Source of the DNA: a virus
Reading direction: 5' to 3' (one strand)
Virus record (IMG/VR): IMGVR_UViG_3300032087_004763
Location: 78,382 to 142,381 of that record
DNA: 64,000 bases
Shown: positions 528 to 32,443 of the stretch, in pieces
Position numbering within the stretch: position 1 is the first letter of the stretch
How the letters are laid out: each line of letters starts with the position of its first letter
Translations under genes and position numbers: made by a program
Notes under the pieces: generated by a model
What the model saw: the letters and a program-made list of their open reading frames with translations, nothing else
The model's database searches: none
Told to the model about the DNA's origin: nothing

Positions 528-1202
528 CTATGTAAATTTAATAAATGCCGATCCGGTATTATTACTCTGATATCGTATTGCGGTCCATAATTTTTGTAAA
601 TCATCACTTGCACTTGGATTGCTTTGTACGAAACTCCAATAATACCGGGTTGTGGATCTTTCGTTCAAAAGTCTTGTATGTGTACCATAATAGTTTCGAG
701 CTGTTCTATTAAATGAAACATCGACTGTTCCTAAACCACCAGATACACCGTCTGTTGCTTTCACGTGCATAGTGTTCCATCCATAATCAGCACTATTTGA
801 ACTCGATAGCACTAAGATAATCGGATTTCCAGAGACGCCTGTACCAGCATAGTTAGCGATTGTGAATCCAGTTATATTATTAGATATACCTGGATTAGTT
901 TTACTTATAGCACCAAAAGCTGCATACCAATCATCGGCTGGTGCTTCTGGATATAAAAAGTCTCCACCGTTCAATGCCTGATAACCGTGCCTCTCAGCTC
1001 CAAATGTAGTATCTTCTCTTACAGTAACAGTAGCGCTTCGAGTTGTGGCACCATAAAAATCATCAAGTGCTATTTCACCAGATGATGGAACACCAGTATA
1101 TCCATCAACACCATAGTACTCGTTGAGTCCGTGAGGCGTCGATCCACCAAACTCAGTTGCGATATCCTGTATGTCAATTGCTCCAGATGTTTGTAGAGGC
1201 AT
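528..1202 (-). CDS. Tail fibre tip/adhesin-like virion protein
   Basis: N-terminus MPLQTSGAI..DIATEFGG..PHGLNEYY..GVPSSGEI..DDFYG is typical of marine phage fibre-tip proteins; lies in the fibre operon. Confidence 0.6.
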   Translation of the reverse strand: MPLQTSGAIDIQDIATEFGGSTPHGLNEYYGVDGYTGVPSSGEIALDDFYGATTRSATVTVREDTTFGAERHGYQALNGGDFLYPEAPADDWYAAFGAISKTNPGISNNITGFTIANYAGTGVSGNPIILVLSSSNSADYGWNTMHVKATDGVSGGLGTVDVSFNRTARNYYGTHTRLLNERSTTRYYWSFVQSNPSASDDLQKLWTAIRYQSNNTGSAFIKFT

Positions 1203-1945
1203 TACATTGATCCATATGCTGTGACGTTTCCGACAACGGTCAGGTTGCCAGATGCATCGAGTTTCATTTTATTTGTACCACCAGTTGCAAAGTATAACAC
1301 TCCGCTTGACTCAGTGATTGTCCAGTTACCAAGATCGACTGTTGCTGCATTTACCTTTCCGCTGACAGTCAAATCATTTGATGTTGCGTTAAACGTAAGC
1401 CCAGCATCTCCGCCAAATGATCCACTGTTATTAAACTGAACTTGAGTGTTTGATCCACCCGGTGAAGTACTCCCACCACCTCCACCACCAAATGTGCCAG
1501 TAGGCAATCTATCAGAATCAATAGTACCAGCGGTAATTTTTGATGCATTGAGTGATGGTATTCTAGCTGCATCAAATGTACCAGATGTAATTTTAGACGT
1601 TGCTAGATTAGGTATGTCAGATGCCGATAAAGATAATCTAGCTGAAGGAACTGTACCACTACTAAGTTTCGATGCATTTAAATTAGTTAGGCTTGCGCCA
1701 GATCCAGAAAACGTTGTTCCTGTTACAGTACCACTTACAATGACACCAGCTGCATCAGTCTTTAGCTTTGTACTACCTTGGTGCATTAACTCAAAGGTAC
1801 CATCACTATCCTTAGTAGTCAGCTTTGTTGCTCTTTCTTCTTTCTTAGATATAGCAGCTACAAATTCATCGGAGTCTGCAGCAGTGAATGCTACTACAGA
1901 CTTAGTCTTAGTACGAGGATTATATACGGTCTTAAATTTTGCCAT
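1202..1945 (-). CDS. Tail fibre protein
   Basis: L(N/A)xSK(I/L)TSGT repeats and PGGSNTQVQFNNSGSFGG fibre motif. Confidence 0.75.
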   Translation of the reverse strand: MAKFKTVYNPRTKTKSVVAFTAADSDEFVAAISKKEERATKLTTKDSDGTFELMHQGSTKLKTDAAGVIVSGTVTGTTFSGSGASLTNLNASKLSSGTVPSARLSLSASDIPNLATSKITSGTFDAARIPSLNASKITAGTIDSDRLPTGTFGGGGGGSTSPGGSNTQVQFNNSGSFGGDAGLTFNATSNDLTVSGKVNAATVDLGNWTITESSGVLYFATGGTNKMKLDASGNLTVVGNVTAYGSM

Positions 1946-3804
1946 TAGGAAATTACTCCGAATTCTTCTGTAAGCGACCCTGTTAAGCCTGTTATATTAT
2001 TAGCAGATCCGCTCGAAAATGTTATCGAGTATGGAACAAAACTTGTTGCATGCCCTTGAAAAAAGTAAGGTCCGTTGAAATCATCAGCCACAAGGTTTAC
2101 TACCCAATCATTAGTATCAGTTTGGTACATATCTAGCGTAAAGCTTCTAATTGAATAATTTGAACCAAGCCCTGTTAAAAGATCAGTAGTACTAGCAGAT
2201 GCTTTAGTGCCTAAAGTTGAGTTATAATATACTCCGGTCCAAGTAACAGATGCACCACTTGTTTGAACAGTCAATATCGGGCTATTTGGACCACTCGAAG
2301 CTGTAATATCGTGAGCTACCCATCTCAAATGTGTCTGAGCTGATGTTGATGCATTTGGCACCGAGTTAGAAATAGTTAAACTAGTAGCCGCATTACCGCT
2401 TGTCGTAATATCAGTATACAATTTAACAGGAACGCTACCGGTGTTATCAGGAAAAGTAATTGTTCGATCAGCTGTTGGATCAGTAACAGTGAGTGTTGTT
2501 TCGTGTGCGTCTGCTGTAGCACCTTCAAATATAATATCTCCTGTTATATCAATCTGGCCCGTGACATTAATACCTGCGGAGTCTGTTTCAAGCTTTACGC
2601 CATTATTAGCACGAAGTGCGCACTTAGTTGTTACACCTCCTTCAAATGAAGCTGCTATTTGCGATGTACCATTATTATTAGTTGTAATTATTTGAATATC
2701 GTCGGTCTGCTTACGAGCCCAAATATAATTAAATCCGGGCGTATGTAACATAACAAGATCATCTTCGTCGCCCATTCCTAATACGCCTGCACCTAATGTG
2801 TTACCACTGATCACACTTAAAGCATTACCATCGTTTCTTAACAATAATGACGGCGGAGAGGTAGCACCTGTCTCGAGAACGACATCTTCATACATGCTAA
2901 CACTATTTGAATCAAATGTTGCAACTGGAAAATTATTTGTTCTAATAGAAACATGTTGACCGGCTCTTGCATTCAATATTGTTTTACCAGCAGAGTCTTG
3001 GTAAAGTGCAGTACGATCAATATGGCCACCCTGATCCTCATGACAAAATACTGCAACGTTAGTAGCACCTGCAAATCCACCACCAACTTTCGCGCGCCCA
3101 AAAGTTGCATGGAGATCTTGGCTAGGATGCCCTTGGATACTATTATCTGCAACTTTTAAAGCTGTTGTGCCAGCAACTTGAAGTAATAAATCACCAGTTC
3201 CATTTTCATTAATTATACTATTACTTCCATTATGAAAAATTTCAAGATCGCTACTAGTACCGAAATTAAGTTTTTCATTATCATTGAATACAACAGTCTT
3301 GACACCGGCAGAATCTAGACCGCTACCACCACCAAATACGCCAAGTGGTAATCTTGCAGAGTCAATTGTACCACTACCAATATTGTCTGCATTTAAAGAT
3401 GTAAGCGCCGATCCAGAACCGTAGAACCTACCGTCAGTAGTGGTTATATCACCGGTAACCGTGATTGAGTCAGCGTTGAGTCCACCAGTTATCTGAACGA
3501 TATGTTTAGCTGTGTCAGTACTTGAGTCAGTACCAATGAGAACATGACCTGAGAACTCTGCTAAACGAATCTCACCGTCGTCATCAACTTCGATTGATGG
3601 GATACCTGAGATATCGTTGACCGAGAATATAGTTCCACCCATACTATCGGCAATAGAGAAAAGCTGACCAACCTGACCTTCGAATGATAACGTGTCACTC
3701 GACAACATATTTGCTGTGATAGTATTGGTTTTGTCTGAATCGACGAATGCGATGTTTTGTGATTGTAGTCCGTTCTTGACTACAAATCTTTTGTCGTTAG
3801 CCAT
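1945..3804 (-). CDS. Tail fibre protein
   Basis: MANDKRFVVKNGL N-terminus; LSFEGQVGQLFSI and FEGATADAHETTLTVTDPTADRTITFPD fibre modules. Start taken at ATG 3804. Confidence 0.8.
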   Translation of the reverse strand: MANDKRFVVKNGLQSQNIAFVDSDKTNTITANMLSSDTLSFEGQVGQLFSIADSMGGTIFSVNDISGIPSIEVDDDGEIRLAEFSGHVLIGTDSSTDTAKHIVQITGGLNADSITVTGDITTTDGRFYGSGSALTSLNADNIGSGTIDSARLPLGVFGGGSGLDSAGVKTVVFNDNEKLNFGTSSDLEIFHNGSNSIINENGTGDLLLQVAGTTALKVADNSIQGHPSQDLHATFGRAKVGGGFAGATNVAVFCHEDQGGHIDRTALYQDSAGKTILNARAGQHVSIRTNNFPVATFDSNSVSMYEDVVLETGATSPPSLLLRNDGNALSVISGNTLGAGVLGMGDEDDLVMLHTPGFNYIWARKQTDDIQIITTNNNGTSQIAASFEGGVTTKCALRANNGVKLETDSAGINVTGQIDITGDIIFEGATADAHETTLTVTDPTADRTITFPDNTGSVPVKLYTDITTSGNAATSLTISNSVPNASTSAQTHLRWVAHDITASSGPNSPILTVQTSGASVTWTGVYYNSTLGTKASASTTDLLTGLGSNYSIRSFTLDMYQTDTNDWVVNLVADDFNGPYFFQGHATSFVPYSITFSSGSANNITGLTGSLTEEFGVIS

Positions 3805-3829
3805 CCGGTTCACTCTCCCCTGTTATGGC
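3800..3829 (-). promoter_or_regulatory. Leader hairpin GCCAU-20 nt-AUGGC enclosing GGGGAGAGUGAACC and the start codon
   Basis: 5-bp inverted repeat whose 3' arm contains the AUG; sits just downstream of late promoter 3839-3846. Confidence 0.4.
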
Positions 3830-3838
3830 GTTTACTTT

Positions 3839-3846
3839 TATTTATA
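3839..3846 (-). promoter_or_regulatory. T4-type late promoter TATAAATA
   Basis: Exact gp55-type consensus upstream of a fibre gene. Confidence 0.7.
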
Positions 3847-4501
3847 TTGGAAACCTTCCACGTAACGCATTATAATTTTGTTTAACTTCATCGGCACTTA
3901 ACATTCTATTATATGCTGTAAAATGTAGTAGATCACCTTTTAATTCATTTCCAGAATATGAATTACATATTTTAGTAAAATTTAAACTTGCAGATGAATT
4001 GTAACCAGATAGAGTGGTTGCCTGTACACCATCTCGATAAATGTATCCAACTCCACTTCCATCTTGTCCTGCTACAATATACCTCCATGTATCAGCTGAT
4101 AATGTAGTACTCATTGACTTAGATACATCATTGTCTTTAAAAGAAAACGTTGTGCTATTTTGTCCGTATATTCCTATTTCATAATTTGCATTAGCATTAT
4201 CATCTTTAAATAAAAAATTCCACCAAGTTTCTTCTTGAGATGATGGTACTCGTACAATAAAAGATATACAAAATCCAGTTGAACCACTCAGACTTGTTGA
4301 AGATGACATAGTAATGCCATCACCTGTTCCATTTGCTTGAAGACCAGCTGATCGATCAATGGTTGATCCAGTAATTGTGCCAGTTTTGGATCCAACAGTG
4401 TCTGTAATAGATGAACCAGATTCATAACTTTTTTTACTACTAAAATCAATAGAGAAAGCAATATTATTTTTTGCAATGTTAGGTCCAGAATGTGCAGCCA
4501 T
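3842..4501 (-). CDS. LamG/concanavalin A-like lectin domain virion protein
   Basis: W.YIVA...IYRDG and YNRMLSADEVKQNYNALRGRF motifs. Confidence 0.8.
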   Translation of the reverse strand: MAAHSGPNIAKNNIAFSIDFSSKKSYESGSSITDTVGSKTGTITGSTIDRSAGLQANGTGDGITMSSSTSLSGSTGFCISFIVRVPSSQEETWWNFLFKDDNANANYEIGIYGQNSTTFSFKDNDVSKSMSTTLSADTWRYIVAGQDGSGVGYIYRDGVQATTLSGYNSSASLNFTKICNSYSGNELKGDLLHFTAYNRMLSADEVKQNYNALRGRFPI

Positions 4502-5205
4502 TAGAGCCCGAACCTCCCTCGTAATGCATTATAGTTTTGTTTGACTTCGGATGATGATAATGATTTATTGTATAGTCTAATACTATAACACCCCATGTCT
4601 GCTGCTTGGCTAGCGGCAAAACCACCAAGAACTGAATCTTGTTCTTGGTTCAATACCCATCCCTCTGTTGATGTTAAATTATTTGCAGCCGTATAATTGC
4701 CACTAAGCACTCCGTTTTTATAATAATCTTGTGAACTTCCTTTGTGTACAATAGTTAATAAAAGTTTTTCACCGGCTGAATACGATATATCAGAACCTGA
4801 GTTTTTTGATTCATTAAAAGGAGTAATCTTTGAGTCAGCTTGTCTTGCAATGTAATAATTATTATCTGATGTTGTGGCCATACTATTAAAATATGTTGGA
4901 GCAGCAGAGGAAGGAGTGGCATCAAGTCGAATCCAAAATTCTAATGACCAGTAAGTTCCATCAGATAAATTGTTTAAAGCACTAACAGGTAAAGTAATGT
5001 AGTCAGAAGTTTGAGAACCGTTCATATTAAAACATCCCAAATTTTCTGTTGTGTGTGACACAGAACCAACTATAGATGCATTATATGCATTCCCACTTAA
5101 ATCACTCCAAGTAGTTCCACTGCCTGAATACGATCTCGTATTAGCAGCATCTAAACAAAGTTGCAATCCATCTGTCACAATCCTAGAACCGTGATTCAAG
5201 CTCAT
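4501..5205 (-). CDS. LamG/concanavalin A-like lectin domain virion protein
   Basis: IVTDGLQLCLDAAN.RSYSGSGTTWSDLSGN N-terminus and LSSSEVKQNYNALRGRF C-terminus. Confidence 0.85.
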   Translation of the reverse strand: MSLNHGSRIVTDGLQLCLDAANTRSYSGSGTTWSDLSGNAYNASIVGSVSHTTENLGCFNMNGSQTSDYITLPVSALNNLSDGTYWSLEFWIRLDATPSSAAPTYFNSMATTSDNNYYIARQADSKITPFNESKNSGSDISYSAGEKLLLTIVHKGSSQDYYKNGVLSGNYTAANNLTSTEGWVLNQEQDSVLGGFAASQAADMGCYSIRLYNKSLSSSEVKQNYNALRGRFGL

Positions 5206-5977
5206 AGACCAAACCTTCCTTTCATCGCATTATAATTTTGCTTCAGCTCATCAGCCGACAATCCTCGGCCATACGCAGAGATAGTAGCAATCAACGAATT
5301 TAATACGGGTGCTGAACCAATATTTCCACTTGTATTCACATTTCTTGATCCAATTGCAATATCATTCGTAGTACCGTTTCTAGTTCTTGTAATACTGCTA
5401 AAAGCTCCTGTTTTTATTTGAACTGCATCGATATATAATCTGGCAGTAGTTCCATCTCCTGTATATGCAATATGCATCCATCGACCAGTGAGATCAGTAT
5501 TAGAATATCCAGTAACAGTATTTGCTCTCATTAAAATATAACCACCACTTGGATTAGAAGACTCAGCAGTTGCTGAAACTGATTCAATTCCTCCTGCAGT
5601 ATCAATCCATAATCCATTCGTAGCACCAGAATACCAACCGCTTTGTGCTTTATTAATCAGCGTACCATAATTCCCTAAAGATTGAACATACACCCAACCA
5701 CAAAGAGTAAAGTTAGTTGATGAACCAAACACTGCAGATTCAATTTCTGAATCATGAGGTACTGATGCATAACTTCCGCTGTCAAAGTCAAGCGAACCTT
5801 TATTGTTTGCATCGAATGATGCCAATGGGCTACCTTTAGTAGTCGCATTCCTTCCGTTACCACTTAGATCTGTCCAAGTTGTACCACTACCTGGATATGA
5901 TCTAGAATTTGCTGCGTCTAGATGCAACATAAGACTATCAGTTACAATTCTAGAACCGTGATTCAAGCTCATAGACC
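5183..5977. repeat. 28-bp exact direct repeat (5183-5210 and 5950-5977) spanning LamG gene junctions
   Basis: ctagaaccgtgattcaagctcatagacc occurs at both junctions. Confidence 0.9.
5202..5972 (-). CDS. LamG/concanavalin A-like lectin domain virion protein
   Basis: Paralogue of neighbours; WMHIAYT..DG..ARLYID LamG motif. Confidence 0.85.
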   Translation of the reverse strand: MSLNHGSRIVTDSLMLHLDAANSRSYPGSGTTWTDLSGNGRNATTKGSPLASFDANNKGSLDFDSGSYASVPHDSEIESAVFGSSTNFTLCGWVYVQSLGNYGTLINKAQSGWYSGATNGLWIDTAGGIESVSATAESSNPSGGYILMRANTVTGYSNTDLTGRWMHIAYTGDGTTARLYIDAVQIKTGAFSSITRTRNGTTNDIAIGSRNVNTSGNIGSAPVLNSLIATISAYGRGLSADELKQNYNAMKGRFGL

Positions 5978-6766
5978 GAACCTCGCTTTCTGTGCATTGT
6001 AATTCTGTAGAACCTCGTCAGCTGACAAAGCCTTTCCGTATATCCTGCAGATATCGATATATCCATACCACCCGTTATTAAACTGCACTGTACCCTCAAC
6101 ATTGCTACTAATTGCAAATGGTCTAGCGGTATCATCACCGTATGTTGCTTCTGTAAGCGAGGTAGTACCAGTTGTCTTTGCTTCACCGTTGATGTAAAGA
6201 ACCCTTTTACCTGTTCCACCATCATACGTTCCAACAATATGAAACCATTTGTTAAAGTAGTCTGCATCGCTAGTAAAATTAAATCTTGTACCCACGGCTG
6301 CATTATTTGGGTTTATTTGAAATTCAACTCTGTTATGTCCTGGGGTTGCACTACTTGCTCCATCTTTTCTCACAGCAAGCCCTGTATAATCACTGAAATC
6401 AGTAGACATAATTCTATATAATGATCCGCTGCCATCTCCTAAAGAATACACCCACGCTTCATATGTCAACCTTCCAGTAGTTTCACCTAGATATAAACTT
6501 GGATCTTTTGAGATATTGCTTTCAGGAAAAGCAATCGCAGTAGTTCCACTTTGTGCAAACAGCAAATGTCTTTGGCCAGGGAATGTAGTATCATCTACAG
6601 TAGGTGCATTACTTCCTGCACCATCACCGAATGTTCCGTGATATCCTTGACCAGACATATCAAAATATGTTACGCCAGATCCAGGATAAGATTTTTTGTT
6701 TGCAATGTCAACATGCAACACAAGTTTGTCAAGAACAATTCTATTTGAATTATATACAATCGCCAT
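5969..6766 (-). CDS. LamG/concanavalin A-like lectin domain virion protein
   Basis: WFHIVGTYDG...LYING and RIYGKALSADEVLQNY motifs. Confidence 0.85.
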   Translation of the reverse strand: MAIVYNSNRIVLDKLVLHVDIANKKSYPGSGVTYFDMSGQGYHGTFGDGAGSNAPTVDDTTFPGQRHLLFAQSGTTAIAFPESNISKDPSLYLGETTGRLTYEAWVYSLGDGSGSLYRIMSTDFSDYTGLAVRKDGASSATPGHNRVEFQINPNNAAVGTRFNFTSDADYFNKWFHIVGTYDGGTGKRVLYINGEAKTTGTTSLTEATYGDDTARPFAISSNVEGTVQFNNGWYGYIDICRIYGKALSADEVLQNYNAQKARFGL

Positions 6767-6768
6767 TC

Positions 6769-9700
6769 TTAGGCCTCAATCAATGTTTCTACAACTTTGT
6801 ATCTTGTCGATGTCGCACTTGTACCGGTTGCAAGAAGTCTTACATCTGATCCGCTAATATCAACATCGTATGTTGCAAGATCACTGTCAGTCGTAATCGT
6901 ACCATACTCAGTCGCAACCGCGGTTGTTCCATCATGTGTCACGAGTAATTCAGAGATCTGTCTCTTCGTACCTTGTGATGCAGTCACGATAAACTTCGCA
7001 CCGCAATAGGATGCATGAGCAAATTCAGCGATCGATGTCTGACTAACAGATGCGACCTCGGCTGAATCACCATCGAGTGTATACGATCCGAATGCACCTA
7101 TTGTGACAGGAACATCAATATCAAATGAAGATCCAGATAACGTCATCTTCTGACCGTTATTAATTCTGAAATTCATATTCTGGCCACTAGAAGCATTTAA
7201 CCATACTTGACCACTTCCATTCTGTATTAGTGCATAGTCATTTGTGCTATTTTTATCTACATGACTAAATCCGGCAATATCGCTAAAACCCATGTAACCG
7301 ATATGAGCTCTACCGATAACAGCTGAGATATCAGTGTCTGGGTATACCTCAAACTTTTCAGTAGGACTCGTAGTACCGAGACCTAAGTTACCCGCACTTA
7401 TGTGATTATCAGTGCCGTCAGTGTAAAATGCTATTTTTTCTACACCCGAGTCATACATGTGGAATCTACCACCATTAGTAGATTTTTCAGCGATTCTTAC
7501 AATATCATTAGTACTTGAATTTGCTTGAATAGATAAACCAGATGAGGTAGAAGATACTGAACTAGATTTTATTGTTAAAGGAGATGTAGGAGCAGTTAAG
7601 CCGATACCAACACGATTGTTTGCTGCATCAACATGTAATGTATTCGTGTCAACCGTGAGATCATTGACAACTGTTAGATCGCCAGAATTACTCAGGATCA
7701 TTTTGTTACTGTTATTGTGCTGATTAACAGTACCGAAATTAAAATGTAAAGATCCATCCCCGGCGCCGCCAGTGGTCTTTCTAGCAATACTCCACACATC
7801 AGTGTTAGCAGATGTACTAGCACCTTCAACAAAGTTAATAGAACTTCCCCAAGTACCATCAGATGATGACACGAGATCAAACTGAGCATCTGTTGCTTCT
7901 ACTACAGCTACACCATAAGTTGTCGCGACACCGACATTTTGATCTACAATATGGAAGCTTCTCTGTGGTGAAGCCACGTTAATACCAACTTTATTATTAG
8001 CAGCATCAACGACTAGTGTATTCGTGTCAACCGTGAGATTACCTGATATCGTAGCAGAGTCAGCATTCACAGTACCAGTAACGGTGACACCGTAAGGCGT
8101 GGTTTCTAACTTTTTAGCGGTGCTCTCATATAGTTCAACGCCATTAGTACCACCAAATATTTTGGTGTGATTAATCAGAGCTGTACCTGATTGACCAATT
8201 TCTAACGCATTGCTTTGATTCCATTCAAGTAATGTTCTAATATATCCGTTATCAGCACCGATAATTCTAGTACCAGTAGTTAATGCTATACCAACATCAT
8301 TAGCTGTATCAGGGCCCCCTCCGGCCGGATCATAAGTTACACCACCACTAAGTTCAATAGCGGCTGTACTTTGAATCAATTCACTAGTAGAGAATCCAAG
8401 AGAATCCCCAAGAATAACATTACCGCCAATACCGAGTTCACCATTAACTGAACCAGCATCACCGATATCTAATCTTGGTGTAGAGTCGGCACTTGGCTGG
8501 AATGTGATCATCGCAGACATATCACGTGGTGTGCCACCAGTACCGGCATCATACTGACCGATACCTACTCGGTTTCCGTTTGTCAGCATATACATTGCAG
8601 TACCGCTCTGCTGACTACGCATCAATATATTTGGATGCCAACCAGTGTACGCAGCGTTTGGTCTTAATTCTATATTGGTCTGGCCAGGAGTTCTTTCGTA
8701 TCTCCATGTGCCGGTAAGATTACTAGTACTACTAGTGGTGGTTTGAGTAACTATACCTGTAAGATTCAGAGGACCAGTTGATACTGAGTCCGAGACAAGA
8801 CTACCAGTGACAGTGGCACCGTAAGCCGTTGTTTCTAACTTCTTACTATTGTCATGGTATACTTCTACTGCTCCGTCACCTTTACATATGAGGAAGTTTT
8901 CAGTACTTCCTGACTTTCGTAGATATAACCAGTTTCCGCGAATTATAGTTGAGCCGGTTCCATCAATAAAATTAATATTTGACGAATTGTTGTGGTATAT
9001 TTTTAAATCTTCACCAGCACCAAACGTTAACCTATTAAGATCACCTAAATTAATAGAATCAGCTACAAGACTACCAGTAACAGTGACACCACCTTCTGTA
9101 GTTTCAAGTCGAGTTACGTTATCATATCTAAGCTTCACGTCACCATTTGCAGTGAATGATGCCATTTGTTCATTGTCAGCTGGATTCTTAAATAAAATCT
9201 GGCTGGTTTTAAAAATTAAAGAACCGGTTCCACCTTCATCAATGTAGCTATGAGAGCCATTATGATAAATCTGGAGGTCATTAGCATCTCCAAGTTTTAT
9301 TCTTGCATTATCGGCTAGACTAATTGAGTCAGCTATAAGACTACCGGTAACAGTAACGCCATCTGATTCAGTGGTAAGCTTCTCGGTACCGTAGTAATAG
9401 AGTCTAACTTTACCTTCACTTCCATCAGCCTTAAAATATAAAGCTGTGGAACCAGTACCGTCATCTGTTCTTATACTAACATCTTGATCATTCGCGTTTT
9501 GTGTTATCTGCAATTCGCCAGTGTAACTTCGAATTCTTGAAACACTTCCAGTATGATCAAGTCTTAAATCATTATTGTCACCTAAATTTATTAAACCGTC
9601 ATCTGGCAAGGTTAGATTTGTAACAGTTGCAGAGTCAGCTACGAGACTACCAACTACATTTACACCACCTTCTGTTGTCGCAAATCTTTCTACACCGTTA

Positions 9701-11799: not shown

Positions 11800-11807
11800 G
11801 ATCTACC

Positions 11808-12162
11808 TCACTTAGTTACAGAAGGACTGACTTGGATTCTACCTTCTAAAATCCTTTCTCTGATAGTTGTCGCACTTGAATCTAGATAAGATATCTCTAC
11901 ATCATAAACATATCGACCTGCTTTTAATGCATCAGTTTGAGTGTTTGTTAGACTCAAAGAAATAATGCCGTCCGTCGGAGGACTTGCAACAATTGCAGTG
12001 AATGCAGTTGTGTCAGAATCGCCGCTATTGTAGTTCTTCTTCATCTTAGCTGCGACTGAATGATCGGTCAGATTTTTCTTTGCACCTTGAGTGTCGACGC
12101 ATTCTAATTGTATAGTGACGTCTGCACCCTGATCTATGGTGAATTCTTCGTAAGTGGCCATG
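11808..12162 (-). CDS. Virion structural protein (BppU-like, fibre/baseplate attachment)
   Basis: IDQGAD...LKAGRYVYDVEI...RILEGRIQVSPSVT; start at MATYEEF after GAGG. Confidence 0.7.
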
Positions 12163-12226
12163 AAATACCTCGGTGATTTCTTTGTCGGACTTTCGCCCCT
12201 GCCTTGGATAAATAGACAATATAGTT

Positions 12227-12234
12227 TATTTATA
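12227..12234 (-). promoter_or_regulatory. T4-type late promoter TATAAATA
   Basis: Consensus upstream of the fibre operon. Confidence 0.7.
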
Positions 12235-12261
12235 ATACTTTGTTTTAGAACGGAGAAATTT

Positions 12262-12546
12262 ATGGCAAGATATATTGTCACATCAAAAGTCATTGGTGAT
12301 CCAACAACAAATCCTAAATTAAGTACCTTTAGTAACGGTCAAGCAACTACTATACTAGGAGAATATGTCGCTGCTGGAAAATTAGAGGTCTTATTTGACA
12401 CAATTAGTGGTAATGAAAGAACGATCTCGCTGGCATTTAAGAATAAAACTACTTGCACTGAAGTAAGATCGAAGCTCAAAGCACTTGGCGATTTTCGTAG
12501 AACTGATGTCAACTGGGAGATTCTCAGTGAAGGATTTGAAAGTTAA
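12262..12546 (+). CDS. Hypothetical protein heading a plus-strand accessory operon
   Basis: GGAG RBS before ATG 12262; stop overlaps the next start. Confidence 0.6.
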   Translation: MARYIVTSKVIGDPTTNPKLSTFSNGQATTILGEYVAAGKLEVLFDTISGNERTISLAFKNKTTCTEVRSKLKALGDFRRTDVNWEILSEGFES

Positions 12547-13758: not shown

Positions 13759-14228
13759 AACTCCCACTATGGCAAAAAGAGTTTGATGACTTCATTCAGT
13801 ATCAGCAAGAGAGCGGCCACCGACTTGCGAAGAACTATCGATATGATTACTTACAAAGGTCTGATGAGTTAACAATACTTGTAGATGACGACGACCGCAT
13901 CGCTGGTCTCGCCTGCATGCTAAAATGGAATGATGTTGCGACCCGAGTAATGTATCGCTGGGCGAGAGACCGAAGAATTGAAAGAACTGACCACGTGTAT
14001 GGCGATCTATCAAAAGCTATATTATCACATCAGCTTCCACTTGTAAACACTCCTTATGCATTTATTGGCCTCGATGGTAATCGTAAAAGGACAAATAAGA
14101 AGTGGGCGGATGCTGCAGGTTGGCAGGTAACAGAGGGAAGAGTACTACCCAAACATCATCAGCATATAGCTTATATTAAACTCAAGGAGACAGATGAACC
14201 ATTCGCCTGTGAAAGAGCTTGGCCTTAG
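13728..14228 (+). CDS. Hypothetical protein, possibly GNAT-fold
   Basis: Overlapping operon member; alpha/beta pattern only weakly GNAT-like. Confidence 0.4.
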   Translation: MQNFYVVDKLELPLWQKEFDDFIQYQQESGHRLAKNYRYDYLQRSDELTILVDDDDRIAGLACMLKWNDVATRVMYRWARDRRIERTDHVYGDLSKAILSHQLPLVNTPYAFIGLDGNRKRTNKKWADAAGWQVTEGRVLPKHHQHIAYIKLKETDEPFACERAWP

Positions 14229-24600: not shown

Positions 24601-25313
24601 TATAGGGCGCTTTCATCATCAGTCGTAATTACTTGTTCTGATATTTTAAATCCAACTTCAATATTAATACTAAATGGAAAATATTTCCCTAGTACTAACT
24701 CTTGTGCTTCAGCTGTTACAAAGTGATTTTTAACAAAGAAAGTTCCAGGTGCAATTTGTAAAATAGTTCCAGTATTAGCAGCAGAGCCAGTTGATGGGCT
24801 ATCGGCTGTTAATGTAATACCAAGAGTTGAGTTTGTAAATGAAGCACCGTCTTGTACTACAACAGGCGAAGTGCCTGATGTTCCAGCTGATGTATCAGTA
24901 TATTCAACAAAAAGTGTGGGAGGATTATCTCCAGCGCCATCATCTCTTGCAGAAGCCGCAAAGGCTTTTCTCACTATAAATTTAATGGCAGTCGTGTCAC
25001 CGGTGAATTCTTTACCGACAAGATCGGAGAAAGAAAGACCAGCTGCACTTAATGTAGTAGCCGCTGCTGTAGTGAGTTTAATAGAAGGAAATCTAAGTAT
25101 ATGAAGGTTCCCACCTTCGACTGCGGCGCCTTCTACAAAAATGTTACTTCCGAACCGACCGATCTCTTCTTGAATAATTGTCTGCATTTGAGTAAGCTCT
25201 CTCGCTTGAAGAGCTCTACCCGCATTGAATAATATACGATGATAATGATCGCTGTCTTTGAAATCATCTTTGTATGTAGTTCCAAATGTTGTTGTAGTAA
25301 CATTAGTAGCCAT
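21636..25313 (-). CDS. DUF4815/VrlC-like large structural protein, N-terminal part
   Basis: YKDDF...RILF..GRALQARELTQMQTIIQ, APGADRYKI, RTKEESGNY, LRDVLDFRP, LTTLSLLE. Confidence 0.85.
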   Translation of the reverse strand: MATNVTTTTFGTTYKDDFKDSDHYHRILFNAGRALQARELTQMQTIIQEEIGRFGSNIFVEGAAVEGGNLHILRFPSIKLTTAAATTLSAAGLSFSDLVGKEFTGDTTAIKFIVRKAFAASARDDGAGDNPPTLFVEYTDTSAGTSGTSPVVVQDGASFTNSTLGITLTADSPSTGSAANTGTILQIAPGTFFVKNHFVTAEAQELVLGKYFPFSINIEVGFKISEQVITTDDESALYDNQGASPNISAPGADRYKITLSLAKKSKVTSAENFVYLATISDGEISKQATTSNGYNTIYDVMATRTKEESGNYTINNITAKFSEVSGNDSNLDLELSGGTAYVDGYRLELPRTKLRIQKARDTRTENNQPIIAQYGNFVIGNTANNAGLPNIDTFDSINLMNNYGHTGSVIGGARVRAVEEADSAHKFFLFDINMANGQSFRDTRSFGTSTTDFVNIVTEDGIAQLKETSNNSLLFPLPSTRPTVNGVSDLSLTVQKRITFTYSGSTVTENAGGTGDIFTNTGDWILAKTDGAVTTATFNLIGSPTGNQVEISSIATGNGDYELLAYIAIAGANLSSRQKTLEAAQTVTKTWPTQADSDGNGLAFIDLGFADVHEIQSIAVDSALGADISDNFTFDNGQRDNFYARSRIVANPGVTIPAGSIATTFRRFSHGAGDLFTVNSYQGAINYDDIPDFTKVNGEIINLRDVLDFRPVEGTNGQYSGTGGIVNLLPQTTDVIRADVEYYLPRKDKLVIGIANVDRSTLKFGQYRQITGVSALDPRPPIQPPGTLTLYDMSLKPYTLDKDDVSLQKNDTKNYTMQDIGKLEKRIDDVVELTTLSLLENETSSIEVLDSAGNARTKAGFLADNFANYNFSDTFNPGYRASIDQGEKELTPRFSEASVRLIYDADNAGNTATRVGDYIICPYTEEAFVDQDLVSQEIGVNPFGVLTNSGRMKMSPASDNWFETEYVPDIVIELEDVVTSKGSVTVRSRNDSKYSWYGSTGKVITGSKVVRDKINEVILEKKFIPYMRSIKVYFRARGLSPNTQHFAYFGEESVADWVRSETSFVDYSTTSVDLGSTLTKSTGHPDGSTTLISNGEGEIIGSFVIPSTAALRFRAGDVLFKLLDISENNDDGSTSSAFFTFSAQGIINVSERTFESTRHVTLARGVVQRDDDGGGGGSRGKRTGGYHNYNNGFYSYSSGGRADNDDRDTQADADAAGGSAGSSPF

Positions 25314-25325
25314 AAATTTTTAACC

Positions 25326-26711
25326 CTAAATGGTAATGATAACCTTAATATCTTCAGTCTGCGACGATGATCGTGTGACAGCGGCCCTGTTTTCAATATA
25401 GAGAACCTCACCGCTGAATTTATCTATAGTATAGTTTGGAGCTGCAGAATCCACTGTTCCTGTTCCACTACCACCAGTTTCTGTTGCTGTTTCTCCATCA
25501 CTAAATGACTTAAATCCAGTCGCTTCAGTCTGATGATAGAATACACTACTATCAGTAATTCCATCAATGAATGCAGTAGCACCAGATGAACCACCGACAA
25601 TCTTATTGTCTACTGTGAATGTAGCAGCAGAGACACCATTAAGTTTAAGTGAGCGAAGTGCAATACCAGAAGTACTACCAAAAATCGGTGTAGGCTGACC
25701 AGATGCGCTGTCTCCAACTTCTAAATTTTTCATTAAAACAATTTGTCTAAAATCTTGATCGGTGATAAAATTACCACCCTCAGTTCCTGCAGGTTTTGCA
25801 TTAAACATAATTGAGCTTGATCTGAGATCATCACGAGGATCATATCCGATCCCCTTCTGTGTAGTGATAATAGGCCGATAATCAGCTCCTGATCCACCGC
25901 CTCCAGTGAAAACAATCTCAGCTAAATCATATCCTGTTCCACCAGCCTCTGCACTATCTAGCTCAACCTTTACTACTTCACCGGCACTTACCGTGGCAAC
26001 TAGTCTTGCAGTTCTACCCGTTCCGTTAACAGTAACAGTTGGAGCTGAAGTATAACCACTTCCACCACTTACCTTAAGAGCTCCAGTGATCGCACCACTT
26101 ACAGCGTTTTCGCGAACCTCAGCCTGGAATCGTTTTGCATCTGATAAAGAAGTATCAGATGATGAATCTACTAATGGAGAAAACTGAATAGGAACGAATC
26201 CAGACGACAAGAAATTATTAGCAGAAGTAGCATCGACAGTATAAAGGTATTTCCAAATATATCCATCAGACGTTTGGAATGGTTTTGTCTTTGCTACACC
26301 AGCGTCATTATAGCTTGGCTTAATAGTTGACGGTTGAGCTATTCCAGCCGCGTTCTTTGATTGTTGAATTACAATATAGACATCGTTGTCATCAGTCAGT
26401 ACATAGTGAGCCGGTGAAGAATTGCCGGCCTGTGAATCTGAATATGCAGGATAAATTGTAGACGTTGACCAGTTGTGACGAGTTACGACAAATGAAGTTG
26501 CATTCACTATCTTAATAGATTGAAGGTTCTCACGAGCAAGTCTTTCCTCACGGATCGTGCGTACTGGGTTAACCACTGTATCACTTGAATCATACGCATC
26601 AGATTTACCAATTCCAATATAATACTGATCTGAATCAGTAGCATTCGTCACTTCATCAAAGAGAAGATTTACTACCTTTTTTCGAAAAGAATCAGTTACA
26701 ATTGCTGTCAT
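25326..26711 (-). CDS. Baseplate wedge subunit (T4 gp8-like)
   Basis: MTAIVTD.FR, DGYIWKYLY, SGEVLYIENR...R...QTEDIKVII. Confidence 0.85.
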   Translation of the reverse strand: MTAIVTDSFRKKVVNLLFDEVTNATDSDQYYIGIGKSDAYDSSDTVVNPVRTIREERLARENLQSIKIVNATSFVVTRHNWSTSTIYPAYSDSQAGNSSPAHYVLTDDNDVYIVIQQSKNAAGIAQPSTIKPSYNDAGVAKTKPFQTSDGYIWKYLYTVDATSANNFLSSGFVPIQFSPLVDSSSDTSLSDAKRFQAEVRENAVSGAITGALKVSGGSGYTSAPTVTVNGTGRTARLVATVSAGEVVKVELDSAEAGGTGYDLAEIVFTGGGGSGADYRPIITTQKGIGYDPRDDLRSSSIMFNAKPAGTEGGNFITDQDFRQIVLMKNLEVGDSASGQPTPIFGSTSGIALRSLKLNGVSAATFTVDNKIVGGSSGATAFIDGITDSSVFYHQTEATGFKSFSDGETATETGGSGTGTVDSAAPNYTIDKFSGEVLYIENRAAVTRSSSQTEDIKVIITI

Positions 26712-26723: not shown

Positions 26724-27662
26724 TTAAGCTAGAGTTATTTCACCCTGATTTCCGATTAAGAACCAATTTGCTCCGTCCCATACGCACTGGCATCCGTCGT
26801 TTTGTGCAAGTGCGAATGAGGTTCCTTGTGCAAAATTTGAAGGAGTAACAGTCATAGCACCAGCGCCCTTATTTGTAAAGATCTTGTACTCACCAACCGT
26901 TGTTCCATCTCCTAAAGTTACTGCTATTGCACTTCCTCTATTACCTATGATAAAGGTTGTATCATCAATATCTGTAGCTGCTACTGTAGCTGCTGTTACA
27001 GTCGTTGCTGTATAGGCAGCTTTTGAAAATTTTACGGATCCAGTTCCCTTTGCATCAACATTTAAATTAATATTAGTGTTTGTACCAGTTGCTGAAATAG
27101 ATGGAGGATTACCGGTAGCAGCATTACTAATTGTTATCTCATTTACTGCAGATCCTGTTCTACTCAGAATCAACATCTCGTTTCCAGACGAGTCGTTAAT
27201 CGACTGTTGAATAATTGGTCTATATGCAGTCGGATTCGTGAGCGTCTTATTTGTTAGTGTATCTGTCGTTGCTCTACCGACAAGCGTATCAGTTGATGTC
27301 GGTAAAGTAAGTGTTCCTGAGTTTGATATAGAAGAAATAACAGGCGTCGTAAGCGTCTTATTTGTTAACGTAACCGTGTTTGTATCAAGTACGATATTAC
27401 CCGATGCATCAGGTAATCTAGCAACATTATCTGCAGTAGGATTAGTTACCCCAAGACGAGTTTCAAATGCATTTGCTGATGATCCTTCAAATGCAATAAC
27501 GCTGTCCTCGATCGTTATCTGAGAACCAAGCGTTGTGCTATCACCGCCAAGATATGTGTATATCTCAGAGAAGTTGCTATTAATCTTGTCAGCGGCTTGA
27601 CGAAGTGTATCACCGGTCTTATCGTTCGCAGCAGAACCCGTGCTAATATTTTGCTTTGCCAT
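26724..27662 (-). CDS. Baseplate wedge/tail fibre connector (gp9/gp10-like)
   Basis: MAKQNISTGSAANDKTGDTLR.AA.KIN.NF.EIY; TLTNKTLT repeats. Confidence 0.8.
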   Translation of the reverse strand: MAKQNISTGSAANDKTGDTLRQAADKINSNFSEIYTYLGGDSTTLGSQITIEDSVIAFEGSSANAFETRLGVTNPTADNVARLPDASGNIVLDTNTVTLTNKTLTTPVISSISNSGTLTLPTSTDTLVGRATTDTLTNKTLTNPTAYRPIIQQSINDSSGNEMLILSRTGSAVNEITISNAATGNPPSISATGTNTNINLNVDAKGTGSVKFSKAAYTATTVTAATVAATDIDDTTFIIGNRGSAIAVTLGDGTTVGEYKIFTNKGAGAMTVTPSNFAQGTSFALAQNDGCQCVWDGANWFLIGNQGEITLA

Positions 27663-27696: not shown

Positions 27697-28665
27697 TCAG
27701 AAATTCGAGTCACTTAAATATCTAGTGAATATTGATGCATCCATTGTCTCGGTCGTAATCGTAGTATCTGGTCCAATTGAGTCAGCACTATCATCAAACG
27801 TAAACGAGTTCGGTGACATAATTTGTAATACATTGTCATATGTATTATCAAGTTCTGTAGTGGTCAACGAACTATAGTTACTAATTGGGTCATTCAATAT
27901 TATTCTACCCGAACTATCACCAATAGAAAGCGTAGCGGTCAATGGTTCATCTAGTGCAAACATCGAGATTGATGCTTCTTGACCCTGAATCACGATTGCT
28001 TCGGCTTCAGCTAATGGATTTTGTCCAATCGCTGTCGGAGTAATAGACGCTGGATTTTCGAGTAATACTTCTCCCTCAAAATAAAATCCAGCTGGATGTA
28101 CAAACTTTTTATACAGAGTCTCATACTCTCTTGTAGATAGACCCGTCTTAACTAAAATAGAAAAGACCTGATAACGCGTATTATTTGTAATAAATTTTTG
28201 GCTTTCAAATCCTATATGATGTGATAAGAAATTATTATCTGCATCATTAATAGTCAGTACATCTTTCTTAGGATACTCAATTGCTGCTTCTTGGTTGAAG
28301 AAACCTCTGAAGAATCCTTCGGCTGATACTAATGTTCCCTTTGATTGATAGAACAATGCTAACAATCTTGTCATCAATCTTGGTTGTTTAAAGAATGATA
28401 CGTTAGTAAGACCGTCACCGATCTCACCAAGTAGAAGGTCTAGATTAGAAAGATCAGTTTGACTTACATCCTTAAGAGAAAATATATCATGTATTATTCT
28501 ATCGTATGCTTTATCGTCTGTACCACTTACAAAATCATAATATTTTTCTAAAAAAGTTATTAGATTAGGATAATCTTCTTGCGCATACTCTGGTAAGACG
28601 TCTTTTATCTTTGATTGAAAAAACGGTAGATCTCTTCTATTTTGATCTTCTATAATGTGTGTCAT
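27697..28665 (-). CDS. Baseplate wedge subunit (gp7-like, short)
   Basis: LPEY..EDYP.LI.FLEKYY, FYQSKGT, YQ.FS, FVHPAGF. Confidence 0.75.
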   Translation of the reverse strand: MTHIIEDQNRRDLPFFQSKIKDVLPEYAQEDYPNLITFLEKYYDFVSGTDDKAYDRIIHDIFSLKDVSQTDLSNLDLLLGEIGDGLTNVSFFKQPRLMTRLLALFYQSKGTLVSAEGFFRGFFNQEAAIEYPKKDVLTINDADNNFLSHHIGFESQKFITNNTRYQVFSILVKTGLSTREYETLYKKFVHPAGFYFEGEVLLENPASITPTAIGQNPLAEAEAIVIQGQEASISMFALDEPLTATLSIGDSSGRIILNDPISNYSSLTTTELDNTYDNVLQIMSPNSFTFDDSADSIGPDTTITTETMDASIFTRYLSDSNF

Positions 28666-30497
28666 GTGATGACAGCCGCTGTGTTCTGATAATCGATAGT
28701 AGCATTTGCAAATGATTTGTCAGTATCAATTGTAATGATATAATTTCTTAATGGCCGAATCGTTGCTTGATTTGCCGGTGTAGCAGTTATGTGAATACTA
28801 GAGCCAGCAAACGCACTCGGATTAAATCCAGTAATATCAACTTTACCTTTTGCAGGATTATAACTTCCTGCATTATCTTTGATAACAACCTCATCAGAAT
28901 TGATGATCTCAAGTGTATTAGATTCAAGTTTGTTTCTTAATGTACAAGTCTGACCGTTAAGTGTAAAGGAAGTAGAAGTGACTCTATACTCGACATCATC
29001 ATTCGCAGCGATAGCAACAGGATAACTCAAGGAATAATCAGCTAGAAGATTCAGGGTAGGAGAGAATCTTAACTGCATCTTAACATCCATTTTTGAGTCA
29101 AGAATCGCTGTGCTTATTCCATCCACTTCAGCGAGCAATGCTGACCTTCTAAAGACCTTATCGAATGTATTAAGATTTGAGGTAATATAATTATTAATTA
29201 CCGTTTGTACATTCGATTCCGTAGTTTCTACAGTTGTACCTGATAAATCAGGATCAAAATTAAATGTAGTGACTAACTCTAGAAAGACATCGGTCGGATC
29301 GCTAAAGACGGTGTCAATTGACATGATTGCAATATTGTCACCAAGTTGTGTTTGAATTTGGCTTTTTGTCGCAGTCTTAGTTGCTTCGGTGATACCATCC
29401 TTAAATTTAAGACTCACATAAACTCTTCCATAAACTGGAGGAACGTTATCGTTTCCACCCCAAGCAGAGACATCAGATATCACAGATGAATATTTTGATT
29501 TGATTAAAGCTTTGTAATCCTCGGCTGTTACAAGTCGTTGTTGTGTCGCAAACGCAAGAGGTGCATTTCCTTTAATAGAAGCTATTGATTCCTTCTCATC
29601 ACCGCCTGCAGAGTTACTCACAGTAGTGACAGATAAATCATAATCAACTGATGGACTTCCAAAAGATATCTGTGCATTTGGAGAAAAAACTGATGCTCCA
29701 TTTGCATCTGCACCTGAACTTGTAAGATACGTTATCTCAATTTTATTTCCTGATGAAGGAGATTTACCGAGTACATTACCGTCACTGAAAATAACATCAT
29801 AGAATCCATTAGGTGCTTCTCTTACAATGTAAACAGTCGAATTTGAATTAATCCTTGCTGTGTCATTAATATTGACATAAGTAGTTGATTCGGCTGATGT
29901 AGTTGTATCAAACACCTTGACTGTCATTGTTGTAGTGTCGATTGTTTTATCTGGGATAATATAAACTTGTTAACCAGTTTTGTCACCAACTAAAAATGTT
30001 TTTGTTTTAAGTGTCCCTTCCTTAATAGAGAGAGTAGAACTTCCAGCAGAAGTTTTAAACTGAAAATTACCAGATCCGTCATTAGTAGCAATATGATCTT
30101 CTAATGTTTGAAATGTATAAGAGACTTCATCGAGCGTAGCAGTAAACTTTGTGTTCTTCGGAAGTGTAACAGTTGACGTCAGTGTATCGCTTGATGCTAC
30201 TGATATCGACACGTTAGCAGCCGAAGCAGTCTTCGATCTTGGATAGTATCCTAGGTTTTCTGCATGGGTAACAACAGAACTTCTTAACTGCGCAGAAGAA
30301 AGAAACGCTTCATTGAGTCCCATGTTTGCAATGAGACCATTAACATGTGTATTATATGCTAGTACATCTAAAATATTAGAAAGGCCTGACCCTTCAAAAT
30401 CATAGTCAGAAAATTCTGACTGAGATTGAAAATAAGATTTTAGGCTTGATTTAATCTGATCAAAATCTAAATCAGACGACTTGATAGCGGTGCTCAT
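28662..30497 (-). CDS. Baseplate wedge subunit gp6, interrupted by one in-frame TAA (29970-29972)
   Basis: LDFDQIK..LK.Y, DYDFEGSGLS.ILDVLAYNTH in the first part; QRLVTAEDY and YGRVYVS in the second. Both ORFs are in the same frame: KTG*QVYIIPDKTIDTTTM. Confidence 0.85.
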
Positions 30498-31634: not shown

Positions 31635-31642
31635 TTTATCTC

Positions 31643-32443
31643 CTATGATTTTTGATATATTTCAGATAATTTAATAATACTTACGCCCTGTTCATCACCT
31701 TGTGCTGGAGGACCTGATCCAACATCATTTAAGACAAAACTCATGGATGAGGTGGGTGCATTACTTGATCCAAATGCAATACCGTATCTTAGCTCGTTAG
31801 TAGTTGCTGGTTTGTCAAAGTATATAAAACTATGCTGCTGCGAAGTGTTACCAATATGCGCATATACTCCCCAATAGTTTGGATGATGTTTATTATTATA
31901 ACCTTCATATCCTGCTGTAGTAATTAGCTCGCCGTCTTTTACTATTCTAAATCCACTATCAGCGCTTGTAGAGATACCATTAATTGATACCTCCATCATA
32001 ATTAAACTAGTTGTGTACTTAGGTTTAATTTTAGTTTCTAATGGAGTTATTATTGCACCAGGAAATGGATGATTTGAAGCTACGTAGTATTGTGAGGCAG
32101 CATCTTCTCGAGTAAAAACAGTTTGTATTATCTCACCATGTCTATTATCTTCTGAAAAATTTTGAAAGATATTTGGATCCATTATAAACAGATCAGCAGA
32201 ATCATCAAGTGTTACCGTAATACCAGATGGAATCGTCAATGTGTCTGCAGTAAAAAGCGCACTCTGACCAGCAGACAAACTAAGATTTTTAGTAACCTGA
32301 TTTGACCCTAAACGAACGGGTGGATCAGTAAATTCTACAATTTTATTTGCATCGGTCGATGCCGTTCGTGGTAAAAAATAAATCACCTCGCCACTCGAAT
32401 CAACGAAAGCAAGCTTATTATCTTTTACAATCATATCAGTCAT
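31643..32443 (-). CDS. Putative virion/fibre-like protein
   Basis: G.IIQTV...IKPKYTTSLI...DKPATTNELRY...S.IKLSEI fibre-tip-like domain. Confidence 0.55.
   Translation of the reverse strand: MTDMIVKDNKLAFVDSSGEVIYFLPRTASTDANKIVEFTDPPVRLGSNQVTKNLSLSAGQSALFTADTLTIPSGITVTLDDSADLFIMDPNIFQNFSEDNRHGEIIQTVFTREDAASQYYVASNHPFPGAIITPLETKIKPKYTTSLIMMEVSINGISTSADSGFRIVKDGELITTAGYEGYNNKHHPNYWGVYAHIGNTSQQHSFIYFDKPATTNELRYGIAFGSSNAPTSSMSFVLNDVGSGPPAQGDEQGVSIIKLSEIYQKS

Follow-up and report, generated by a model that had tools for sequence, protein, structure and literature searches.

The outward-facing virion proteins of an uncultured marine T4-like myophage (IMG/VR virus record IMGVR_UViG_3300032087_004763) contain an excess of the tripeptide D-S-[A/D/G/S], i.e. 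of Asp-Ser (DS) followed by a small residue, which reaches six to ten times the chance frequency, in the fibres, the peripheral baseplate and an outer insert of the tail sheath. The motif marks one large marine clade, its Asp and Ser are conserved together within otherwise variable sequence, and its occurrence co-varies with genes encoding glycosyltransferases (GTs) of the GT25 family. A covalent modification of the Ser, its nature as a glycan and the role of GT25 proteins as the enzymes are inferences from these observations. A phage-encoded, GT25-linked sequon for Ser glycosylation is thus the leading reading of the sequences, although we adopt it tentatively. Slightly more reserve applies to the wider proposal that a large, abundant marine T4-like clade sugar-coats its fibres, peripheral baseplate and outer sheath at a cytoplasmic Asp-Ser-(small) sequon, which would be read by a GT25 O-glycosyltransferase, while variable downstream transferases would give each phage a glycan of its own. 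The DNA analysed, hereafter the window, comprises 64,000 nucleotides (positions 78382-142381 of a 142,381-bp viral contig; CheckV completeness estimate, 84%), and coordinates refer to it unless the genome is named.

The original prediction of such a sequon was based on hand counts of the DS dipeptide, every one of which was reproduced exactly. In the structural block of the window, whole-protein shuffles gave an expectation of 73.6 DS, against 100 observed (1.36-fold, z 3.3); SD was at expectation, DT was depleted and D[ST] overall was not enriched. The enrichment resides in the tripeptide D-S-[A/D], and also D-S-[G/S], rather than in the dipeptide. DSA, present 27 times versus 5.8 expected (z 9.4), is the most enriched of all 8000 tripeptides, and is followed by ADS and DSD (17 DSD versus 5.2 expected). 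The non-structural proteins of the window show no enrichment (1 DSA versus 2.4 expected). When the outer virion proteins of the whole genome were shuffled within 20- or 40-residue windows, the observed numbers were 53 DSA versus approximately 8 expected (z 16-17), 26 DSD versus 6 and 141 DS versus 91. Local shuffles of the proteins of a related genome, G001, gave a similar picture (35 DSA versus 6.4 expected, z 11), and the excess was replicated in L008-L017, G002, G003, G005 and L075-L077. The enrichment is therefore kept under whole-protein as well as 20- and 40-residue local shuffling, a check that the original prediction had proposed, and a composition artefact is ruled out.

A cause at the level of DNA was also ruled out. 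The GAY-TCN codon pair for Asp-Ser always contains GANTC, a sequence that is neither avoided nor enriched in the region (666 versus 508 expected), and the TCN and AGY families of Ser codons both occur at background proportions at the DS sites; selection thus acts at the amino-acid level. Approximately one quarter of the DS sites fall in tandem or repeated modules that recur within and between the fibres of this phage, i.e. (i) the tandem module 'ITSGTIDSAR[IL]P', (ii) 'DTDFVDSARVSSIITADVDA', (iii) 'G[LI]DSAAVxxL[IV]DS[AD]YVQxR', (iv) 'NLYYTTxRADS[AD]' and (v) 'ANFDSD'. The two main tandem modules were found in this genome only. Among the 112 DS located outside the modules, A or D at position +2 is still approximately three times too frequent, and the relatives arrive at an equal excess via different sequence contexts. 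A single repeat expansion can thus be dismissed as the whole explanation, in agreement with what had been argued from the window alone.

The motif-bearing fibre and baseplate proteins described below are all encoded on the minus strand. The 1676-aa fibre (6769-11799) contains 27 DS versus 15.0 expected, together with 13 SD; 16 of its DS are DS[AD], and its modules include 'NLYYTTxRADS[AD]', 'ANFDSD' and 'VxADSATxxxLT'. Two further proteins gave PHROG tail-fibre matches: a 622-aa tail-fibre protein (1945-3813) with 9 DS versus 4.9 expected, 5 of them DS[AD], and a 247-aa fibre protein (1202-1945) with 3 DS, all of which are DSD and one of which lies in a 'GTIDSDRLPTGTFGGG' module. The highest DS density was found in a 177-aa fibre-like protein (19279-19812; 6 DS versus 2.1 expected), whose orthologues in relatives contain up to 12 DS in 187 aa. 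A small protein of 68 aa (60835-61041; 2 DS) has the module 'GGGTDSAAVIALIDSDYV' in common with a 1052-aa fibre (genome 64289-67447, or L071:4289-7447), one of the further DS-rich virion proteins encoded outside the window, which carries 30 DS, including 25 DS[AD].

The DUF4815/VrlC-like protein is encoded in two pieces, a 1225-aa peripheral baseplate protein (21636-25313; 9 DS, 5 of them DS[AD]) and a 527-aa protein (20037-21620; 7 DS versus 3.1 expected) corresponding to the C-terminal part of VrlC/DUF4815 proteins (phrog_358). An excess was also observed in the gp8-like baseplate wedge protein (25326-26711; 9 DS versus 3.9 expected), the gp9/gp10-like protein (26724-27662; 3 versus 1.6) and the gp7-like baseplate wedge protein (27697-28665; 4 versus 2.3), the last being the innermost protein in which it is found. 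The adjacent gp6-like inner wedge protein (28662-29927; 1 DS versus 3.5 expected) marks the boundary of the motif. This operon boundary was compared in the present genome, in G001 and G002 and in three further contigs. The homologues of gp53, gp5, gp25 and gp6 contain approximately no DS[AD] or DS[ADGS], and their DS does not exceed expectation; the gp7-like, gp9/10-like, gp8, DUF4815 and small fibre-like proteins reach 2-3 times the expected DS; the next protein (~318 aa) and the adjoining enzymes are back at zero. The motif is limited to the fibres, the peripheral baseplate and the outer sheath insert, and is lacking from inner baseplate proteins and enzymes. The alignment of the sheath protein with T4 gp18 covers only residues 9-98 and 315-627. 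The intervening insert (99-314), which cannot be aligned and replaces the outer domains of T4, holds five of the six DS, and the conserved core has none. The recurrence of the motif in unrelated structural proteins, a central element of the original prediction, was confirmed by gains at non-homologous positions in unrelated folds.

The AlphaFold models of these proteins are poor (predicted local distance difference test score of 53 for gp8 and 38 for the 177-aa protein), and serve as hints of secondary structure, being unfit for surface mapping or fold search. In these low-confidence models the DS positions are predicted to follow a strand, to link two strands or to precede a helix directly: in the 177-aa protein, all six would be at strand-strand boundaries, turns or helix starts, and DSA-252 of gp8 would directly follow a strand. 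As far as this can be judged, the sites are not buried (loops, turns, helix starts and the sheath insert), which agrees with the proposed surface coat to the extent that models of such low confidence permit. The same placement also suits a purely structural role. It is conceivable, if on the whole unlikely, that D-S-[small] is merely the tight turn or helix N-cap preferred by this clade in beta-rich, loop-rich outer virion proteins. No covalent modification would then be required: Asp would cap the backbone, Ser and the small residue would allow the turn, the loops would be stabilised, and GT25 would act on host lipopolysaccharide (LPS) or another glycan. A mild preference for Gly at +3 and for hydrophobic residues at -1 and -2, as at the end of a beta-strand, fits this explanation, as does a 10-residue periodic repeat in L013 with D/E/N-S-G/A at the turn. 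However, NSA, ESA and DTA, which should be equally good caps or turns, are not enriched, and the motif occurs in unrelated folds yet only on the outward-facing parts of the particle.

The evolution of individual sites was followed in gp8 and its orthologues. DS[AD] occurs in eight alignment columns, three of them clade-wide and five lineage-specific, and outgroups have unrelated residues at all eight. An alignment of 120 gp8 sequences revealed five to six core DS positions at which D and S are 70-91% conserved, within hypervariable and indel-rich flanks and with A, G, D or S at +2. At these core sites the retention and loss of the two residues are coupled (513 cells with both, 57 with D only, 32 with S only and 118 with neither), and Thr replaces Ser in only 11 of the 720 cells. 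The retention of DS at DS[AD] sites was 0.94 relative to L009 (controls, ~0.5-0.6), 0.54 relative to G001 (overall identity, 0.56; control dipeptides, 0.19-0.41) and 0.11 relative to Phage C48C1 (overall identity, 0.50). Such two-residue conserved islands with a small +2 residue and a joint loss of D and S are the signature of a short linear motif, and the pattern of gp8 is that of a motif in loops and not of a conserved structural segment. The many sites conserved in position would suit a structural idiom, and a loop-anchoring cap could look alike, but the confinement of conservation to two or three residues within otherwise free loops is less readily explained by it.

The DS motif behaves as an all-or-none character and is bound to one large marine clade. 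In all IMG/VR loci with a gp8 identity of at least 41%, DSA is 5-12 times and DS approximately 2 times as frequent as expected. A database search recovered 1282 gp8 homologues of the clade from marine and other metagenomes, and every one of the 120 best (at least 45% identity) contains 4-9 DS (mean 5.9 versus 3.0 expected). Across 80 IMG/VR loci chosen on an identity gradient, the observed/expected ratio of DS[ADGS] is bimodal, with values of either 2-6 or 0.3-1.5. Seven reference T4-like phages showed no DSA excess in the homologous baseplate and fibre proteins. Together with approximately 25 IMG/VR loci of the sister clade that also lack the excess, they rule out a general property of marine T4-like fibres. 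In the gp8 tree, 59 of the 61 rows of one fully supported clade are DS-positive, the exceptions being the pair C48C1 and L129. The sister clade, to which cultured pelagiphages and cyanophages belong, contains 27 DS-negative rows (Mosig, HTVC008M, Melnitz, P-HM2 and pf16 are included), plus one borderline row. General turn propensities should not be limited to a single clade, and the sister-clade homologues use other residues without any excess, which argues against a merely structural idiom.

Two maximum likelihood (ML) trees place C48C1 and L129 within the DS-positive clade, which implies a secondary loss of the trait. A second independent event of this kind, although favoured by the ML trees, is not significant, since a single origin was not rejected by the approximately unbiased (AU) test (ΔlnL 21.3, p 0.12). 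C48C1 (L001/W01, 120-156 kb) has no DSA excess and no GT25, and shows a mild excess of DSD in its fibre region (13 versus 5, z 3.4). This may be a relic, if C48C1 has lost the trait.

A search for enzymes that accompany the motif singled out GT25. Two adjacent genes on the minus strand (49388-50721) encode GT25 proteins of 218 and 226 aa matching PF01755; the pair is syntenic in G001, and is also present in G003 and G005. A third paralogue is located at 54529-55215 (minus strand). The PF01755 scores are 51.8 bits (49388-50044), 45.5 bits (50041-50721) and 36.9 bits (54529-55215), with a gathering cut-off of 24, and the proteins show weak similarity (E 0.012) to a GT25 protein of solved structure, 8xc8. 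GT25 was found in three DS-positive genomes that are 84-100% complete (G000, G001 and G003) and in two fragments, G005 and G007, that are also DS-positive, and was absent from the DS-negative C48C1, Mosig, HTVC008M and G008 (complete or 81% complete). Thus, 3/3 near-complete DS-positive and 0/4 DS-negative genomes encode it. We then applied a phyletic filter to all 186 genes, retaining those that occur in both G001 and G003 but in none of the four DS-negative genomes. Only six genes were left, i.e. the GT25 pair, the third GT25 gene and three small or partial matches. No other enzyme family co-varies with the DS trait. As GT25 alone among enzymes passes the seven-genome filter, the association is specific to GT25, though it is based on one or two evolutionary events. 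A structural idiom leaves this co-variation unexplained.

The GT25 genes belong to a sugar cluster (~46-58.6 kb) encoding three GT25, GT8-like and GT9-like proteins, an FkbM methyltransferase, a DegT aminotransferase, an NDP-sugar 4,6-dehydratase, an epimerase and a cytidylyltransferase (51841-52278). In G001 the pair is accompanied by the same two neighbours as here, encoding a 209-aa unknown protein and a phrog_1962 glycosyltransferase (48094-49391, minus strand); both are also present in the DS-negative C48C1, so they are not trait-specific. The original prediction had linked the motif to the GT cluster as a whole. This link stands for the GT25 genes; co-occurrence with the entire 10-kb GT/amino-sugar cluster is ruled out, since only the four-gene core is common to this genome and G001. 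Genes of possible DNA hypermodification, which had appeared as confounders in a two-genome list of clade-specific genes, disappeared once seven genomes were used. They lie outside the window (genome 35966-40387) and encode a thymidylate-synthase homologue, a class II aldolase and a uracil-DNA glycosylase-like protein, which fit a hypermodification pathway; they are present in G001 and absent from C48C1, Mosig and HTVC008M, and do not track the DS trait when G003 and G008 are added.

According to the proposed mechanism, D-S-[A/D/G/S] would be a short linear motif on exposed loops, turns and helix starts of outward-facing virion proteins, serving as an acceptor tag. T4-type virion proteins assemble in the cytoplasm. 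There, late in infection, a phage transferase would act on structural proteins during or after folding, recognising Asp-Ser-small where loops are accessible and modifying the Ser hydroxyl, the best candidates being the GT25-family enzymes encoded at 49388-50721. Other, variable transferases encoded in the 46-58.6 kb cluster may then elaborate this glycan, and the host-facing surface of the particle would thereby become sugar-coated.

Several points weigh against this mechanism. The sites lie where a purely structural turn or N-cap would, and the Gly preference at +3 and the alternation of D, E and N at the first position of the 10-residue repeat in one family point the same way. The association with GT25 is based on one, at most two, evolutionary events, and because the AU test keeps a single origin, it could be a matter of common descent. 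GT25 was not found in several DS-positive fragments or in G004 (61% complete), although fragments cannot demonstrate absence, and beyond the four-gene core (48094-50721) the GT/amino-sugar cluster is not conserved in G001. To our knowledge, the characterised bacterial GT25 enzymes are galactosyltransferases of LPS or lipooligosaccharide. At the Pfam level, no known family of cytoplasmic protein O-glycosyltransferases was found, neither GT4/SdgB-like nor Maf-like: GT4-type PF00534 gave no match in G000, G001, G002, C48C1 and Mosig (a control matched in 14/14 genomes), and Maf/MptE-like PF01973 gave none at E<=0.01 in the same five, so enzymes of these two types were rejected as modifiers. Moreover, the published reading of the GTs located in the host recognition cluster region is remodelling of the host O-chain, i.e. 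a change of the host surface (PMC7029224), as the structural alternative would have it. On balance, the proposal of a phage-encoded O-glycosylation sequon is better founded than when it was made, having survived the checks of composition, GT25 co-occurrence and exposure, and the lineage-specific turn or cap stands as its main rival.

The restriction of the motif to host-facing parts would also be expected if Asp-Ser were a binding surface, on which a cation (Ca2+ or Mg2+ from seawater) or a host polysaccharide is held by many weak contacts, permitting reversible adsorption with no enzyme involved. The DSD and DSDG variants resemble acidic metal-binding loops, and a clade-bound trait could reflect a common host surface. 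We nevertheless regard such a function as improbable: the commonest form, DSA, has a single acidic residue and would bind an ion poorly, the sites occur one by one in unrelated loops with no clustered coordination spheres, and no known family of binding motifs was matched.

A glycan is not the only group that a Ser sequon could accept, and the enzyme-rich island within the fibre genes (12546-18345) was therefore considered as well. This island, part of the so-called host recognition cluster, encodes DS-poor enzymes, i.e. (i) a fatty-acid desaturase-like protein (13069-13758), (ii) an Asp_Arg_Hydrox-like protein (14631-15095), (iii) a GT-A-like protein (15081-15776), assigned from atlas features only, (iv) a radical SAM/SPASM protein (15773-16828) and (v) a methyltransferase-like protein (16825-17385), as well as unknown proteins, and is syntenic in G001 and G002. 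The non-glycan modifications that can be envisaged are radical SAM/SPASM oxidation or cross-linking, phospho-alcohol transfer by the cytidylyltransferase (51841-52278) and Asp hydroxylation by the Asp_Arg_Hydrox-like protein. In their favour, the genes in question are present, and the radical SAM/SPASM gene is a constant of the island in three clade genomes (window 15773-16828; G002, L072:15095-15868; G001, ~101.3 kb). However, the island genes, including those of the radical SAM and hydroxylase-like proteins, have homologues in the DS-negative Mosig (26-53% identity); the island thus predates the trait and is ruled out as a trait-specific factor. None of these genes passes the seven-genome phyletic filter, and the radical SAM/SPASM protein reached no curated NCBIfam or maturase subfamily, all of its matches being far below the cut-offs. 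Modifications of this type are very unlikely, even less probable than a binding surface, and Asp hydroxylation, put forward originally as an alternative to glycosylation, gained nothing from the analysis.

The window also encodes gp53-like, gp6-like, gp7-like ('Baseplate_wedge'), gp9/10-like and gp8-like proteins and several long fibres, as well as a gp5 OB domain protein (32447-33163) and gp32 (40434-41324), which has no DS. Between the fibre genes are four tandem Laminin_G_3 paralogues of 219-265 aa (3842-6766), with 0, 2, 3 and 0 DS; unlike the adjoining fibres, these concanavalin-like lectin proteins have no DS excess. In the 1676-aa fibre, the sequence 'KNIVIGDSAADSS' (residues ~541-553, window ~10141-10179) resembles block I of GDSL/SGNH esterases, in which a hydrophobic run is followed by G-D-S. 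An esterase domain could, judging by this resemblance, be present within the fibre; a Pfam search gave no domain. The N-terminal 50 residues of the 1052-aa fibre match the N-terminus of the major tropism determinant Mtd of a Bordetella phage (E 2.4e-7), and the rest of the protein consists of short DSA-centred repeat modules, for which no solved structure was matched in a comparison with a structure database.

At the other end of the genome (positions 1-13600, L068, outside the window), 19 consecutive open reading frames (4338 aa) contain no DS, versus 14.8 expected, and DS is their most depleted dipeptide. They encode the large and small subunits of ribonucleotide reductase, RNase H, endonuclease V, and unknown and possibly packaged proteins. 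Their outgroup orthologues are also DS-poor (0-2 each), and in every genome compared the non-virion (non-peripheral) orthologues have DS at ~0.7-0.9 of expectation. The evidence for a clade-specific purging of DS from non-virion proteins is weak, as the depletion is mostly background and the outgroups are equally DS-poor.

No phage nearly identical to this one has been recorded. Among reference phages, Phage C48C1 (Kyanoviridae) is the nearest, with a gp8 identity of 38%, followed by the pelagiphages Mosig and HTVC008M, and the hosts of cultured relatives are SAR11, OM43 and cyanobacteria. A single tRNA-Arg gene (anticodon TCT) is located at 45242-45317 on the minus strand. Outside the window, ARAGORN identified a permuted two-piece transfer-messenger RNA (tmRNA) on the minus strand (genome 22120-22447, or L069:2120-2447) with the tag peptide ANDDVYALAA. 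Permuted two-piece tmRNAs are known from Alphaproteobacteria, some Betaproteobacteria and some cyanobacteria. This hints at an alphaproteobacterial or cyanobacterial host, or at another lineage with a permuted tmRNA, and not at Bacteroidota.

If virion glycosylation is confirmed, the parts of the particle that touch the host would bear a glycan coat, with consequences for host recognition, adhesion to particles, protease resistance and decay rates. In tailed phages of Gram-negative-type hosts, virion glycosylation at a defined sequon would be without precedent. Furthermore, many of the marine-phage genes described as 'LPS-type auxiliary metabolic genes' or 'LPS biosynthesis' genes, now assumed to remodel the host surface, would be reassigned to virion decoration. 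For experiments, the motif is a precise and inexpensive handle: the Ser sites are defined, the candidate enzyme is encoded by two genes, and C48C1 and the cultured pelagiphages serve as natural controls that are DS-negative. Should it prove merely structural, it would still be an unusual clade-wide tripeptide idiom under selection in unrelated folds.

The genomic setting corresponds to what has been described in pelagi- and cyanomyophages as the host recognition cluster, a hypervariable island immediately following VrlC in which fibre genes are mixed with GTs and radical-SAM cassettes (Zaragoza-Solas et al. 2020, PMC7029224). The layout of the window at 1202-21620 (DUF4815 pieces, fibres and GT-A-like, radical SAM/SPASM and methyltransferase-like genes) matches this description, and the same layout was found in G001, G002 and L075-L077. 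The published work, which assigned the GTs of the cluster to host O-chain modification, described no virion motif (PMC7029224). The cultured pelagiphages on which it builds (HTVC008M; also Mosig) fall in the sister clade, which is DS-negative, and the GT25 pair of the present phage lies outside the cluster, ~28 kb away.

The original prediction had drawn an analogy with the O-glycosylation system of Bacteroidota, in which the sequon is D-(S/T)-(A/I/L/V/M/T) (PMC8550257, PMC8729774). Asp precedes the modified residue in that system, and DSA formally fits its sequon. However, DSD, DSG and DSS fall outside it, yet this phage shows enrichment or tolerance of them, and the variants with Thr or with I, L, V, M or T are not enriched. 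Within the structural block, D[ST][AILVMT] occurs 74 times versus 57.9 expected, an excess wholly due to DSA: DS[AILVMT] is present 48 times versus 29.1, which after subtraction of DSA (27 versus 5.8) leaves ~21 versus 23, and DT[AILVMT] is present 26 times versus 28.8. Moreover, only periplasm-exposed proteins of Bacteroidota are modified, and never those of the cytoplasm (PMC8729774), and nothing in this phage points to a Bacteroidota host. The analogy thus fails on sequon, compartment and, weakly, host (the tmRNA hint), and the Bacteroidota system was ruled out.

The closest mechanistic precedent is that of the staphylococcal enzymes SdgB and SdgA, which attach N-acetylglucosamine to Ser in Ser-Asp repeat adhesins and thereby protect these from proteases (Hazenbos et al. 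2013, PMC3794999). They are soluble transferases that place sugar on Asp-adjacent Ser of surface-exposed proteins. Their targets are long uninterrupted SD repeats, whereas the motif described here is an isolated D-S-small in loops, with SD unenriched; they also include a GT4-type transferase (Glycos_transf_1), a family for which PF00534 found no match in this phage or in the relatives searched.

In actinophages, the glycosylation sites are said to lie in C-terminal extensions of capsid and tail-tube subunits, and a short sequon reportedly has not been defined. Mycobacteriophages are known to glycosylate their virions with enzymes of their own (Freeman et al. 2023, Cell Host Microbe, as cited in PMC12801897), the GTs decorating the structural proteins of the phage itself. 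The GT25 genes of the present clade co-vary with a candidate target motif, on which a glycan would be borne. The difference is in the candidate targets, which here are the fibres and the peripheral baseplate of a T4-like phage of Gram-negative type, marked by a defined tripeptide.

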